Shown piece after piece: positions 31,152-47,118 of a stretch of DNA of 48,980 nucleotides. Under the pieces are notes generated by a model. That model saw only the letters and a list, made by a program, of their open reading frames with translations, searched no databases and was not told the origin of the DNA. Source of the DNA: a phage; sequence record NC_105619.1. One strand, given 5' to 3'. The position numbers and the translations under genes were made by a program. Numbering within the stretch: position 1 is the stretch's first letter; each line of letters starts with the position of its first letter.

Positions 31152-31401
31152 ACGAGAAGTTTGGGAGCACGCGAAGGAATGCGGAATCTCAGACGATATA
31201 GCACTAATAGCAAAATATTTCGATATAAAGGATGTTAGCATTATCTCAAACGGAAAGATTTCATTTATGGAAGATATGCCGAGAAAAATGCATAGAGTGC
31301 CAGCCACACCATCACTTGAGTTTTATCGTGAAGAAGGAAAGAGAATTGAGCGAGAGCGAAAAAACGCAAAGAACAACAAGCCTTCCAGGCTTAAATATTA
31401 A
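31129..31401 (+). CDS. hypothetical protein (frame switches to +1 near A6 tract, see findings)
   Basis: Charged protein-like ORF; downstream coding potential continues in +1 frame to 31633. Confidence 0.3.
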   Translation: MLIKKQGKREVWEHAKECGISDDIALIAKYFDIKDVSIISNGKISFMEDMPRKMHRVPATPSLEFYREEGKRIERERKNAKNNKPSRLKY

Positions 31402-31711
31402 CTCAGATGACTACCAGACTATATGGATTGGGAAGAAGAAGGTTAAGCAAATCCATTTCTCTGACTGGTTGCCACCTGACTTTGTTAATGTGCTTTGCAC
31501 TATCGGCATTGAGCAGGAGTTGCATATAGGTTACTACTCACCAGGCCGAAACAGTATGATGCTTGAGGTTGACGGAAAACTTGTTGAGTTTAAATCTTCG
31601 GATCTAGGATTCTGGTTAAAGGCTGTGGCATGAAACTTTATTTTGCTGTAGTATTAACACCGCTAATTTCATTTTCAGTAATGTATTTCATTATCATGTA
31701 AGGATTAAAAT

Positions 31712-32863
31712 ATGTCACAAGCTAAAATCACCACCGAGCAACTTATTGAAGAGCGCATGAGCGGCCTAACACTTCGCGAAATCGCGGAAAAATACGGTAT
31801 GCACATTCGCACTGTTGAAGCGCGCCACGCAAAATTGGCAAAAGAAGGCCACTTCCACGGCAACGAGCATGTTGCTAAGAACGTACCTGAAGGATTCATG
31901 GTAAAAGGTACATCAACGATGATTCGCGGCGATGGGACCGAGGTAGTGCGCTGGGTAAAAACCGATCAGGACCGTGAGAAGATTGCGGCAATGATGGAAG
32001 CGGCGCGTATTGCATTCTGTGAAGACCTGCCGCGAGCAAAGCCAACCGAGCTACTAACCTCGCAAGGGCTTACGACAGCGATGGGTAAGCTGGCACTCTA
32101 TCCGGTATTCGACCTGCACATTGGTGCGCTTGCTCATAAGCATGAATGCGGAGAGAACTACTCTACCGATGTAGCGGAAAAAGTGCTGAGTGACTTCTTT
32201 AATTACGCGATCGATATTGCTCCGAACGCAGAGAAGGCTGTTCTGTTAATCGGCGGTGACTTCCTTCACTCTGACGGTCTTGACGCTGTTACACCAGCAA
32301 GCGGTCACGTTCTGGATCAGGATTCACGATACGCAAAATTGGTGCATGTTGCGATTCGTTCTGTGCGTCGCGCTATCGACAAAATGCTTATGAAACACAA
32401 GGAAGTCGAGGTTCAGATTATTGAAGGTAACCACGACCAGGCCGGGATGATTTGGCTACGTGCTGCAATGTCGGCATATTATGAAGACGAGCCTCGAGTA
32501 TTCGTTGACGTTAGCCCTATGATTCTGCATAAGACTCGATGGGGAAACACCTTATTGGGATACACTCACGGGCACACTATGAAAAAGGCAGACACGCGAC
32601 TTGCAGCGATGGCGGCAGACTTCCGTGCAGACTTCGGAGAGAGCAAGTATGTGTATACTCATAGCGGTCACTGGCATCATCAGACAATCACTGAACACTC
32701 GTTAGGTATCGATGAGGTTCACGGTCAGTTAGGAGCTAAGGATGCATACGCCGCGCGCGGCGGGTGGCGCTCATATCGTCAGGCGGCGGTAATCGTTTAC
32801 GACAAGCAATTTGGTGAGATAGGTCGATTCATCTACCGTCCAGAAATGACAGGATCGCACTAA
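31712..32863 (+). CDS. metallophosphoesterase with N-terminal HTH domain
   Basis: MPP motifs D-x-H (VFDLHIG), GD (IGGDFLHSDG), GNHD (IIEGNHDQ), HGH, HSGHWHH; N-terminal ..LTLREIAEKYGMHIRTVEARHAKL.. HTH. Confidence 0.65.
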   Translation: MSQAKITTEQLIEERMSGLTLREIAEKYGMHIRTVEARHAKLAKEGHFHGNEHVAKNVPEGFMVKGTSTMIRGDGTEVVRWVKTDQDREKIAAMMEAARIAFCEDLPRAKPTELLTSQGLTTAMGKLALYPVFDLHIGALAHKHECGENYSTDVAEKVLSDFFNYAIDIAPNAEKAVLLIGGDFLHSDGLDAVTPASGHVLDQDSRYAKLVHVAIRSVRRAIDKMLMKHKEVEVQIIEGNHDQAGMIWLRAAMSAYYEDEPRVFVDVSPMILHKTRWGNTLLGYTHGHTMKKADTRLAAMAADFRADFGESKYVYTHSGHWHHQTITEHSLGIDEVHGQLGAKDAYAARGGWRSYRQAAVIVYDKQFGEIGRFIYRPEMTGSH

Positions 32864-32897
32864 TTGATAAAAACGCCCGAAGGGATTCGGGTATAGT
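32855..32897 (+). promoter_or_regulatory. early promoter module
   Basis: CGCACTAATTGATAAAAAC + 22 nt (CCCGAA-GGGA-TTCGGG hairpin) + TATAGT. Confidence 0.5.
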
Positions 32898-32928
32898 AAC
32901 CACATCAAAAACAAAGAGGCTACATATC

Positions 32929-33105
32929 ATGAAACGAGTTAAGTGCATCCGAAATGACTCCAAAACACTTCCATTCCGCGTAAATCAGATCTATAGTGTT
33001 GGTTATGATTTCGGTGGTGGATTGTTTGAGATTTACGACGGCCGAGGCTCAGTAATCCAAGCACCTCTGAATTGTTACTACCTGGAATTTATTGATATAA
33101 ATTAA
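32929..33105 (+). CDS. hypothetical small protein (58 aa)
   Basis: ATG after RBS AAGAGG downstream of promoter module; below track length cutoff. Confidence 0.35.
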   Translation: MKRVKCIRNDSKTLPFRVNQIYSVGYDFGGGLFEIYDGRGSVIQAPLNCYYLEFIDIN

Positions 33106-33127
33106 CAATATCATTCATCACCTTACA

Positions 33128-33157
33128 GGCTGGCATGATTTACATGCTGGCCTTTTT
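33128..33157 (+). terminator. putative terminator
   Basis: GGCTGGCATG-attta-CATGCTGGCC imperfect hairpin followed by TTTTT. Confidence 0.45.
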
Positions 33158-33224
33158 GCGTTGTATCAAGTAAATTTGAAGGTTAAAATCGACTCACTTG
33201 TTCAAAAAAATATATGGTGAGATT

Positions 33225-33440
33225 ATGAAAGAATTTTTAACAGCAGCCACGTCAAGCACGGGCGGTGCTTCGTTGGTAGGGGCGGCGACAGGTCAACTTT
33301 ATATTGCTGGCGCTACATTCATTTGCTTTCTGCTTTTTGGCACTTGGGGAGCGTACTGGAAGTATCGTGATAGCAAGGCAATTCAGGAAGCGTTAAACGA
33401 TGGCGATCTAAATAAGGCGCTTAAGATCAGGGGGAGATAA
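33225..33440 (+). CDS. holin (putative)
   Basis: 71 aa, hydrophobic segment ..[21 protein letters not shown].., charged C-terminus, stop overlaps lysozyme ATG (TAATG). Confidence 0.55.
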
Positions 33441-33928
33441 TGAGTTTAAAAAATAACGTTATAGGCGCATCGATCGGGGCAGCTTTGACGTTGACGCCTA
33501 CCCTACTGGAACGAATCGAAGGTATAGAATACGAGGTTTATTACGATATCGCCGGAGTCCCTACCGTATGCAGCGGAATAACCGGGCCGGACGTCATACC
33601 TGGTAAGAAATACACTAAGCGAGAATGCGATGCTTTGTTGATAAAACATATCGGCGTTGCTCAGAGATACGTAGACAAAAAGGTGAATGTTGATATTCCG
33701 GTAACGATGCGCGCGTCATTGTATAGCTTCACTTTCAACGTTGGTACTGGCGCGTTCGGATCTTCTACAATGCTTAAGCTAATAAATCAGAGTAAGCACA
33801 GGGAAGCGTGCAATCAGTTATGGCGATGGGTATACTACTACAACCCAAAAACCAAAAAGCGCGAAGTGTCTAGAGGACTCAAGAACAGACGCGCTGAAGA
33901 GTACGCATATTGCGTTAAGGAATTATGA
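33440..33928 (+). CDS. endolysin (T4-lysozyme-type muramidase, possibly SAR-anchored)
   Basis: Catalytic spacing E-8-D-5-T in ..[20 protein letters not shown]..; weakly hydrophobic Gly/Ala-rich N-terminus. Confidence 0.8.
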
Positions 33929-34329
33929 TGAAACTGAAGAAAACGTGCATTGCGATTGTAGTGGCTGTTGGTGTTATTTCTCTATCAGGTTGCTCGGCGG
34001 CATCTGCCCTGAGCGGTTTAATCGGATCTAAACCTGAAGTTACAGCACAGATTGGAGAGGAGAACACAAAGCAATTAGCAGGAGTAACCGCAAAATCCGA
34101 AGATAAGCGAGATGTTAAAGTTGAAAAGTCCAATGTAGGAAAGGTTGACTCTTCCGTGAAGAAGTCAATTGAGGTGTCAACCATTAAGGCCAACACGGTT
34201 AACGCTGAAAGCATCACTGTGACTAAGCCTGGGAACTGGTATGATCCTATAGTTGGTTGGACCCTCGTTCTCATTGGTCTGTTGCTGGTTTATTTTTCAA
34301 TTCGTAAGGGCGAAAAAAAGGAGGCTTAG
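33925..34329 (+). CDS. unimolecular spanin
   Basis: N-terminal lipoprotein signal with lipobox LSGC plus C-terminal transmembrane segment ..[18 protein letters not shown].. Confidence 0.7.
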
Positions 34330-45825: not shown

Positions 45826-46437
45826 ATGGATAAAATCACAATTTGGGGCCAGACAATCAACCTGTTTCTCGGTACTCGCCGCGTGGCAATCTTTGACTTC
45901 GACGGAACACTGAGTGACGGCTCAAAACGTCTTCACCTGCTACCGACGAAAGATTTGCACTTGACGGAAAGCTGGTCTGAGTTCAACCGCGCGGCAATAT
46001 TTGACAATCCTATACGTAGTACGATTGATGTGATGAACTCTATGTTTGCCGCTGGGTATCATGTGATTATTTTAACCGGGCGAAGCGATGAGGTGCGTTA
46101 CGCATCTGAGTTATGGCTTAAGCATCACGGCGCGCGATATGACTACTTAGTCATGAGGCCGCATACCGACAACCGGAAAGACACGGTAATGAAAGAAGAG
46201 GCGGTGCGCGCGATCGGCATTGATAACATTCTGGCAGCCTGGGATGACTCACCGAAAATTATTCCATTATTCCGATCGCTTGGAATAACCACGTATGCCG
46301 TAGTTGACTATGGCGATAACGTTCACGATCATTTAAAATCTCACGGGGTGGATGGGGTTTGCAATCATGAACCATCTGAGCCGCTACCGCCATTTGGCGA
46401 TAAAATATGCATTAAGTGCAAGGAGTTATTGAAGTGA
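45826..46437 (+). CDS. HAD-superfamily phosphatase (polynucleotide-kinase 3'-phosphatase-like)
   Basis: Motif I ..VAIFDFDGTL.. (DxDGT), motif II ..IILTGR.., later ..AWDDS.. Confidence 0.6.
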   Translation: MDKITIWGQTINLFLGTRRVAIFDFDGTLSDGSKRLHLLPTKDLHLTESWSEFNRAAIFDNPIRSTIDVMNSMFAAGYHVIILTGRSDEVRYASELWLKHHGARYDYLVMRPHTDNRKDTVMKEEAVRAIGIDNILAAWDDSPKIIPLFRSLGITTYAVVDYGDNVHDHLKSHGVDGVCNHEPSEPLPPFGDKICIKCKELLK

Positions 46438-46545: not shown

Positions 46546-47118
46546 ATGAAAACAGCTATCATTTTAAACGGCGCACCTGGAGCGGGAAAAGACACTATCG
46601 GATGCATCCTGGCTGACACTTACGATCACGTAGCCTTGCGCAGCTTCAAAGCGCCAATGTTTGAGATTGCCCGGGCAATCCTTGGTGAAGCTAACTACGA
46701 GTATTTCATGTTCTTGTATGAGGACCGTCGATATAAAGAAGAGCCAGCATCCATCCTGAACGGTAAAAGCCCACGCCAGTTTATGATCTGGATTAGCGAG
46801 GAAGTCATCAAGCCGCAGTTCGGAAATCGATTCTTCGGTATGCGAGCGGAAAGCAAGGTGAAAGAGTCAAACTCCCTTTCGGTATTTACTGACGGTGGAT
46901 TCAAAGATGAGATCTTGCAAATGATTGAAGGCGATATCCAGGTCAAACTATGCCGCATACATCGCAACGGCTGCAACTTCGATAACGACAGTCGAGATTA
47001 TATCTACCTGGATGATATGATCGGTGTCAACGGTTATCAGGAATGTGACTTCTTCTCTGTCGAAGGTCATCCAGAAATTACCGCTCAGCACATAGCCGCC
47101 ACGTTCATCAATAAATAG
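46546..47118 (+). CDS. P-loop nucleotide/nucleoside-monophosphate kinase-like protein
   Basis: Walker A ..LNGAPGAGKDT.. at N-terminus, as in small phage dNMP/polynucleotide kinases. Confidence 0.55.
   Translation: MKTAIILNGAPGAGKDTIGCILADTYDHVALRSFKAPMFEIARAILGEANYEYFMFLYEDRRYKEEPASILNGKSPRQFMIWISEEVIKPQFGNRFFGMRAESKVKESNSLSVFTDGGFKDEILQMIEGDIQVKLCRIHRNGCNFDNDSRDYIYLDDMIGVNGYQECDFFSVEGHPEITAQHIAATFINK

Follow-up and report, generated by a model that had tools for sequence, protein, structure and literature searches.

The gene at positions 31712-32863 (+) of the phage sequence NC_105619.1 encodes a calcineurin-like metallophosphoesterase (MPE) fused to an N-terminal helix-turn-helix (HTH) domain, which raises the question what kind of phosphoesterase this is and on which substrate it acts. 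We analyzed the gene in the context of the whole stretch of 48,980 nucleotides, referred to here as the window. The encoded protein belongs to an isolated clade of the MPE superfamily that is neither a lambda-type phosphatase nor a bona fide Mre11/SbcD enzyme. Our preferred reading, to which we give about an even chance, is that of a DNA-tethered phosphodiesterase or nuclease of the Mn type, which would act without a Rad50-like partner in phage DNA and nucleotide metabolism. The architecture, intact active site, fold, family membership and gene context described in the following are direct observations.

Domain architecture and active site

The open reading frame (ORF) is intact, starts with ATG and comprises 383 codons plus stop. 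The resulting protein of 383 amino acids consists of three parts: an N-terminal HTH, a conserved beta-hairpin followed by a helix, and a C-terminal calcineurin-like MPE domain (32087-32860 (+), residues 126-383). All calcineurin-like motifs are present in the order given in the initial annotation, namely D134-L-H136, G182-D183, G239-N240-H241-D242, H286-G287-H288 and G319-H320-W-H322, and the metal and catalytic residues of the domain are D134, H136, D183, N240, H241, H286, H288, H320 and H322. Both the motif series defining the MPE superfamily (DxH, GD, GNH[DE], H, GxH) and its beta-alpha-beta-alpha-beta sandwich fold are found in the window protein. Structures were predicted with AlphaFold2 (AF2); a first model derived from close homologues only (pLDDT 70.9) was replaced by a second one based on 45 sequences at 38-84% identity (pLDDT 81.7, pTM 0.71).

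Among 40 homologues with 30-67% identity D134, H136, G182, D183, T194, N240, H241, H286 and H322 are invariant, a set that combines the metal ligands with one family-specific threonine (T194). Because the active site is invariant in homologues down to 30% identity, the protein can be regarded as an enzyme under selection to stay active. In 25 orthologues with 65-89% identity almost one third of all positions is invariant, including parts of the N-terminal region. Two further loops are conserved within the family and modeled with low confidence: residues 186-209 (H186, D188, T194-P195, H199, L201-D202, D204, R206) and residues 340-356 (D344, G351, S354, R356). Low model confidence is what would be expected of loops that become ordered by a substrate or a partner.

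Standard domain models recognize the window protein poorly. It scores 15.3 and 15.8 bits against Pfam Metallophos and Metallophos_2 and misses the gathering thresholds of 21.5 and 27, and across the Metallophos and HTH families its matches stay below threshold with E-values between 0.014 and 0.1. Homologues reach an E-value of 2.7e-5 with Metallophos, and 7 of the 40 match at E <= 0.01. The HTH-MPE family is too divergent for the Pfam Metallophos models.

The same holds for the N-terminal domain (31724-31849 (+), residues ~5-46), for which the window protein gives sub-threshold matches to Pfam HTH models (E 0.02-0.1). When the 40 homologues were scanned singly, matches were obtained to Sigma70_r4_2 (1.5e-9), GerE (2.4e-8) and many other HTH families. 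Searching the PDB with the family profile weakly retrieved GerE, DesR and RhlR (E 0.09-1.2), and the AF2 model shows three helices at residues 8-16, 21-27 and 32-44 with pLDDT of about 90. Judged by these profile matches, the N-terminal domain is a tri-helical HTH of the sigma-70 region 4 / LuxR-GerE type, and the proposed fusion of an HTH to a complete MPE is borne out. The HTH segment is basic and the MPE domain acidic, with median net charges of +2 and -5, respectively. That the HTH targets the MPE to DNA is a reasonable deduction from its family.

The two domains are connected by a family-specific element (31886-32026 (+), residues 59-105), delimited by the AF2 model and by conservation. 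It is predicted to form a hairpin of two strands (62-71 and 77-86) and a long helix (88-104), and carries the signature P59-x-G-[FY]-x-V-K-G-x-S-T...D-G....W-V-K-T, in which P59, G66, S68, G75, W81 and K83 are at least 80% conserved among the 40 diverse homologues. The linker between this helix and the MPE sandwich is poorly conserved. In some distant homologues, e.g. P0138 and P0267 in alignment A2, the hairpin motif 'G[FYH]x[VI]K..S....G....W[VI]' is present as a tandem pair, which suggests a small repeatable binding module.

Family membership and distribution

The window represents an essentially complete T1-like genome (Tunavirus, Drexlerviridae), since the best matches of the MPE ORF are to Tunavirus and the full T1 gene set is present: the genes for the small and large terminase at the start, tape measure, tail-tip J protein, Erf, PDDEXK exonuclease, primase, helicase, VRR-NUC and Dam. 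The MPE gene is the orthologue of T1 gp16. A megablast search with the ORF returned 228 phage records, the best being the Shigella phages pSf-2, phiL and Shfl1 with 96-97% nucleotide identity. The Shfl1 orthologue, Shfl1p67, is 99.5% identical at the protein level and is labeled 'DNA repair exonuclease' with the record note 'similar to Enterobacteria phage T1p16'. The profile of PHROG 704, which bears the same name, aligns over its full length (E 3e-157, residues 4-380 on positions 2-389 of 390). This name is an annotation transfer.

An exhaustive HMMER search detected 4,629 representative clusters at E <= 1e-3, 958 of them at E <= 1e-30. Since nearly all clusters comprise 370-420 amino acids and align from residue ~20-60 onward, the HTH-MPE architecture is conserved. 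By tblastn, 2,033 phage records were found to contain homologues, with hosts including Escherichia, Klebsiella, Salmonella, Vibrio, Campylobacter, Rhodobacter, Yersinia and Ruegeria and with Drexlerviridae, Kagunavirus, Jerseyvirus, Dhillonvirus, Eracentumvirus and Casjensviridae among the lineages. A chance ORF is hardly compatible with such numbers of clusters and records. Depositors have named these proteins 'DNA repair exonuclease', 'metallophosphoesterase', 'putative phosphoesterase', 'winged helix-turn-helix domain-containing protein', 'sigma-70 region 4 domain-containing protein', 'oxidoreductase' or 'DNA polymerase II small subunit'. Because these names cover the MPE as well as the HTH, both halves of the fusion have already been caught by annotation pipelines. 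The gene is catalogued as a core gene of T1-like phages, so that the fusion is not new and the initial annotation had correctly read a known gene. We found no functional data on any family member in the literature, where the proteins are mentioned in genome announcements only, and a fold search against BFVD returned solely uncharacterised viral relatives.

Relationship to other metallophosphoesterases

Which branch of the superfamily does the protein belong to? The initial annotation had set it apart from the lambda-type Ser/Thr phosphatases, and this holds: the PPP motifs GDxHG, GDxVDRG and GNHE are absent, and DxHxG, GDxxH and GNHD stand in the window protein. A role as a lambda-type Ser/Thr/Tyr protein phosphatase could draw on the shared superfamily and on the place of the lambda NinI gene, which precedes Q and the lysis cassette by one gene, but with all three PPP motifs missing and hhalign against NinI giving a probability of 0.5% we regard it as extremely improbable.

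Comparison of the folds gave figures of 11.6 for GpdQ and YfcE, 11.5 for LpxH and 11.3 for Rv0805. The fold therefore excludes the PPP phosphatases, while nucleases and small phosphodiesterases are left undistinguished. In a Foldseek search with the first AF2 model the top PDB match was MjMre11, which was weak (E 8e-5). Searching the PDB with the single window protein gave no match, and the family profile gave no significant match there either, with weak hits to GerE-type HTH domains and to SbcD/PdeM at E >= 0.09; T. maritima SbcD was reached by hmmsearch at an E-value of about 1.1. No NCBIfam family or PADLOC defence system matched the window protein; PdeM, the ligase-associated MPE endonuclease (TIGR04123), stayed below the NCBIfam cut-off.

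The motif GNHD had been taken as a sign of a Mre11/SbcD-type nuclease. It is common to many non-nuclease MPEs, and the initial annotation goes too far in this assignment. A Mre11/SbcD-type 'DNA repair exonuclease' would process ends or hairpins for recombination-dependent replication of the Erf/RecE-like kind, a role with which GDxxH and GNHD, the Foldseek match to MjMre11 and the Erf, PDDEXK exonuclease and VRR-NUC encoded in the genome would agree, as would the endo VII and exonuclease genes that neighbor the MPE gene in Eracentumvirus. Against it, the MPE core ends at about residue 375 of 383 in the AF2 model, and neither a capping domain nor a Rad50/SbcC-binding region follows. No SbcC, Rad50 or gp46-like gene was found in the whole genome, in which the ORFs of at least 500 amino acids encode only terminase, tape measure, tail-tip J protein, tail fibre, helicase and DUF3987. 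With hhalign, the family profile reached 1.8% against E. coli SbcD and aligned the GNHD stretch alone, and the gene usually lies next to lysis rather than recombination genes. Because a capping domain, a SbcC/Rad50 gene and a profile link are all lacking, we leave the family out of Mre11/SbcD despite its common annotation, and consider the corresponding repair function unlikely.

Of three characterised proteins compared by hhalign, Bxb1 gp47 gave the highest value (44%, E 2e-4) as a single sequence. Profile against profile this dropped to 9.6% (E 0.0034) over 84 columns covering motifs III-V only. Specific kinship with the mycobacteriophage MPEs was rejected, as the similarity does not extend over the whole MPE domain.

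Gene neighbourhood

In the window the MPE gene is preceded by the genes for helicase, VRR-NUC and Dam, three small genes and a micro-ORF, and followed by a DUF7244/SH3 gene, a terminator-like hairpin and the genes for holin, endolysin and spanin. The DUF7244 gene (32929-33105 (+)) encodes a standalone SH3 domain of 58 amino acids (Pfam E 7.5e-26). The hairpin (33127-33153 (+)), detected by a consensus scan only, has an 11-bp stem and a T-run typical of intrinsic terminators and suggests that the MPE-SH3 pair and the lysis genes form separate transcription units. The lysis cassette (33198-34329 (+)) was assigned from the Shfl1 annotation and comprises a holin, a Phage_lysozyme endolysin (PF00959, E 5e-33) and a spanin. 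An exonuclease-holin-endolysin-spanin module has been described in 508 of 522 Drexlerviridae, the exonuclease being a persistent core gene (PMC13164509).

We compared this arrangement with related loci, 79 of which were obtained with alignment A3 and are biased towards Enterobacteria phages. In at least nine unrelated lineages the MPE gene adjoins the lysis cassette on the same strand within about 1-1.5 kb (window 31712-34329 and loci L004, L086, L087, L088, L089, L090, L092 and L094). Dhillonvirus shows the order holins, endolysin, hypothetical gene, MPE, hypothetical gene, small terminase; lysis adjacency is also seen in Rhodobacter phage RcBigEagle, a Vibrio siphophage, Yersinia phage YenM_534 and the temperate Sulfitobacter phage pCB2047-C. 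On three metagenomic phage contigs, two of which carry an integrase, the MPE gene closes the tail-lysis operon. As four unrelated Pfam families (Phage_lysozyme, Peptidase_M15_4, Glyco_hydro_108 and Glyco_hydro_19) are represented among the endolysins next to the MPE, the adjacency is not simply one inherited block; it is given here as an observation, without statistic. Exceptions are Eracentumvirus, in which the MPE gene lies among DNA-metabolism genes, and Kagunavirus and Jerseyvirus, in which it forms part of a small island on the opposite strand within the tail module. In these Guernseyvirinae the island is inserted between the tail-tube and tail-chaperone genes (L002:4771-7170 in Kagunavirus, L085:19609-21358 in Jerseyvirus). 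The Kagunavirus island also carries a superinfection-immunity gene (PF14373), a HAD and a kinase gene, the latter two being absent from that of Jerseyvirus.

The position directly upstream of the T1-like lysis cassette, and next to lysis or terminase genes elsewhere, together with a HTH of the sigma-70 region 4 / LuxR type could mean that the protein is mainly a transcription factor, which controls late or lysis genes and uses its MPE domain as a sensor or accessory; for T1 itself no late regulator is known to us. Several observations disagree with such a role. Within the family conservation is lowest in the HTH, while the catalytic site is invariant. A terminator-like hairpin separates the MPE from the holin gene, and in temperate relatives the MPE gene lies downstream of the tail and lysis genes, in the same orientation, and would be made after its supposed targets. 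We consider this explanation very unlikely.

Nucleotide enzymes form the second recurrent context. Directly behind the MPE gene, 28 of the 83 loci retrieved (L001-L083) carry first a gene for a HAD phosphatase (PF25109) of the polynucleotide-kinase 3'-phosphatase type and then one for a P-loop protein that matches PHROG 139, annotated 'deoxynucleoside monophosphate kinase' (dNMP kinase). The order is identical in Klebsiella T1-like phages, Kagunavirus, Eracentumvirus and a Yersinia phage, and has been described for Pantoea phage AAS23 (PMC8004638). In Eracentumvirus the full order reads 5'-3' exonuclease, endo VII, MPE, HAD, dNMP kinase, DNA ligase. Proteomics of AAS23 lists the phosphoesterase with one peptide and 2.67% coverage; a virion protein was considered and dismissed, the peptide being taken as probable carry-over.

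The window encodes all three proteins, with the other two genes located 13 kb from the MPE gene and a few kb before the terminase genes on a circular map. The HAD phosphatase (45826-46437 (+)) matches HAD_PNKP (E 8.7e-16), PHROG 415 and, in the PDB, the phosphatase domains of Pnkp1 and T4 Pnk. The dNMP-kinase-like P-loop protein (46546-47118 (+)) was identified by PHROG 139 (E 5e-46) and by tblastn synteny.

In Vibrio phage Vp670 (L098:27457-30420) the corresponding slots are occupied in the order exonuclease, endo VII, MPE, an unassigned gene, kinase and ligase. The MPE, gp35, is labeled 'calcineurin-like phosphoesterase', has an N-terminal extension of its own and shows no detectable homology to the HTH-MPE family, which looks like a non-orthologous replacement within a functional module. 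The kinase, gp37, is 45% identical to the dNMP-kinase-like protein of the window, and its label 'phosphomevalonate kinase' is probably wrong. The 'early' timing reported for gp35 in Vibrio phage HH109/Vp670 was not transferred to the window protein, as gp35 is no detectable homologue; synteny alone is informative in this case. Three genes 3' of the MPE gene in Vibrio phage 93E29-1a an 'endolysin' (L087:8911-9282) matches the N-terminal domain of dATP/dGTP diphosphohydrolase (PF18909, E 1.5e-23). The label is probably a mis-annotation, which would place another nucleotide-pool enzyme near an MPE.

These neighbors allow two further explanations. In one, the protein is a phosphodiesterase for small molecules or nucleotides, such as deoxynucleoside tri- or diphosphates (dNTP/dNDP), cyclic or 2',3'-cyclic nucleotides or a defence signalling nucleotide; its HTH would serve regulation or localisation, and together with HAD and dNMP kinase it would reshape nucleotide pools or blunt immunity. 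HAD, dNMP kinase and the diphosphohydrolase-like gene of the Vibrio phage argue in its favor, and late expression would suit the countering of late-triggered defences. A precedent is the PUA-Cal-HAD defence system, whose calcineurin-like enzyme, with a HAD as its partner, hydrolyses dNTPs (bioRxiv 10.64898/2026.01.15.699771). A conserved HTH of DNA-binding type is, however, of no obvious use to a soluble nucleotide hydrolase, no PADLOC model matched, and no similarity to known anti-defence phosphodiesterases was found. On balance we judge a nucleotide substrate improbable, to about the same degree as the Mre11/SbcD-type function discussed above.

In the other, the protein heals ends as a 2',3'-cyclic phosphodiesterase or 3'-phosphatase in RNA or DNA repair and, together with the PNKP-type HAD, the kinase and sometimes a ligase, reverses damage of the kind caused by anticodon nucleases. 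In bacterial Pnkp enzymes an MPE domain acts as the healing phosphoesterase. The T4 Pnk / Pnkp1 type of the HAD neighbor and the ligase following the trio in Eracentumvirus would fit this assumption. The P-loop partner, however, matches a dNMP kinase and not a polynucleotide kinase, the ligase is labeled as an ATP-dependent DNA ligase, the 3'-phosphatase step is already supplied by the HAD, and the HTH points to double-stranded DNA rather than tRNA. End healing thus appears even a little less probable than a function in transcription.

Upstream of the MPE gene the 78-nucleotide 'intergenic' gap is filled by a micro-ORF (31630-31701 (+)) encoding a hydrophobic peptide of 23 amino acids, MKLYFAVVLTPLISFSVMYFIIM. 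Its ATG overlaps the stop codon of the preceding gene (ATGA), and its stop codon lies 10 nucleotides before the MPE start. A Shine-Dalgarno-like AAGGA (31700-31704 (+)) can be read 7 nucleotides before the ATG of the MPE gene. Hydrophobic ORFs of 22-29 amino acids (GRAVY > 1) are found at the corresponding place in 38 of 84 loci, and these represent practically the entire set of T1-like loci. The 24 distinct peptides retain the pattern M-[KR]...P...[MI]-Y...[IV]-M; the Shfl1 record contains no annotated feature at this position. The ORF preceding the micro-ORF (31232-31633 (+)) was mechanically called with 133 amino acids, while the T1p17-like annotation in Shfl1 comprises 96 and the PHROG matches cover residues 50-133. 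This suggests that the real start is internal, near 31346.

Proposed function

How the enzyme uses metals, that it binds and cuts DNA, and what it does for the phage are inferred from the above as follows. In our preferred reading the protein would be an active two-metal phosphodiesterase with a DNA-binding module of its own. This N-terminal module, consisting of the sigma-region-4/LuxR-type HTH, hairpin and helix, would hold the enzyme on DNA, and the MPE site would then cut DNA phosphodiester bonds in a Mn2+-type reaction. The metals would be bound by D134, H136, D183, N240, H286, H320 and H322, and H241 would stabilise the transition state. As a stand-alone phage nuclease the protein would require no Rad50/SbcC ATPase, and its role would be DNA breakdown or end processing within phage DNA and nucleotide metabolism. 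In the version we favor, host or unpackaged DNA would be degraded to nucleotides, with the HAD 3'-phosphatase and the dNMP kinase recycling the products.

The HTH, the acidity of the catalytic domain and the neighbors from DNA metabolism point to DNA as the substrate. Motif II as GDxxH and motif III as GNHD are the forms found in nucleases and phosphodiesterases, the gene comes after helicase, VRR-NUC and Dam in the window, and the MPE-HAD-dNMP-kinase order is recurrent, with all three genes present here. The non-homologous MPE in the equivalent slot of Vp670 and the persistence of the gene in the Drexlerviridae core also count in favor of this reading. The closest experimental precedent is the MPE Gp48 of mycobacteriophage A10ZJ24, which shows both phosphodiesterase and DNase activity and breaks down the DNA of the host (PMC12287305), without being closely related to the window protein.

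Several points weigh against this proposal. The literature offers no functional data on any family member that could back it, the sequence profiles give no link to SbcD, and the link to the mycobacteriophage MPEs is partial, as it is confined to motifs III-V. HAD and kinase genes accompany the MPE in just 28 of the 83 loci. HTH domains can also serve protein contacts or autoregulation. In the at least nine lineages with lysis adjacency the gene is found with the lysis cassette, closing the late operon or immediately preceding the terminase. This would be an odd time to begin nucleotide salvage and fits late DNA clearing or counter-defence better.

A broader proposal, which we consider rather unlikely, may be derived from the lysis context. 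The HTH-MPE would be an unrecognised but widespread companion of lysis and late modules, i.e. a phosphodiesterase tethered to DNA and produced alongside holin and endolysin in many unrelated lineages, irrespective of the endolysin family, and often coupled to the HAD 3'-phosphatase and dNMP kinase. Its job would be late DNA clearance, remodelling of nucleotide pools or counter-defence and not 'DNA repair', and in T1-like phages its translation would be chained to that of the 23-amino-acid membrane micro-peptide.

The family is among the most widespread phage enzymes, and the label 'DNA repair exonuclease' does not agree with the features that define Mre11/SbcD. Knowing the substrate of the MPE and the reason for its association with lysis genes and with HAD and dNMP kinase would correct thousands of annotations and might shed light on the way T1-type phages deal with host DNA and obtain their nucleotides. 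It would also show whether therapeutic phages of the T1-like, Jersey-like and Kaguna-like kinds can do without the MPE.

Comparison with known systems

Compared with the small stand-alone phosphodiesterases MJ0936 and YfcE, archaeal PolD DP1 and the eukaryotic polymerase B-subunits, the window protein differs by its HTH and hairpin module, which all of these proteins lack; the loops 186-209 and 340-356 are conserved in the HTH-MPE family, and no sequence similarity between the family and the four kinds of protein was found. Mre11/SbcD enzymes are likewise without the HTH and hairpin that precede the MPE domain here. Lambda NinI is also a phage MPE, with its gene lying shortly before the late regulator and the lysis genes, but is a PPP-family protein of 221 amino acids without HTH. 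The MPEs of cluster A mycobacteriophages, namely A10ZJ24 Gp48, the recombination directionality factor (RDF) Bxb1 gp47 and L5 gp54, are phage-encoded as well. In contrast to the window protein, they comprise about 255 amino acids with motif I at residue 10, have no HTH and are located in an early replication-gene context. With the PHROG 704/T1 gp16 family, represented in Drexlerviridae, Guernseyvirinae, Dhillonvirus and others, we found no material difference: the window protein is a member of it, and relatives at 30-45% identity share its three-part architecture.

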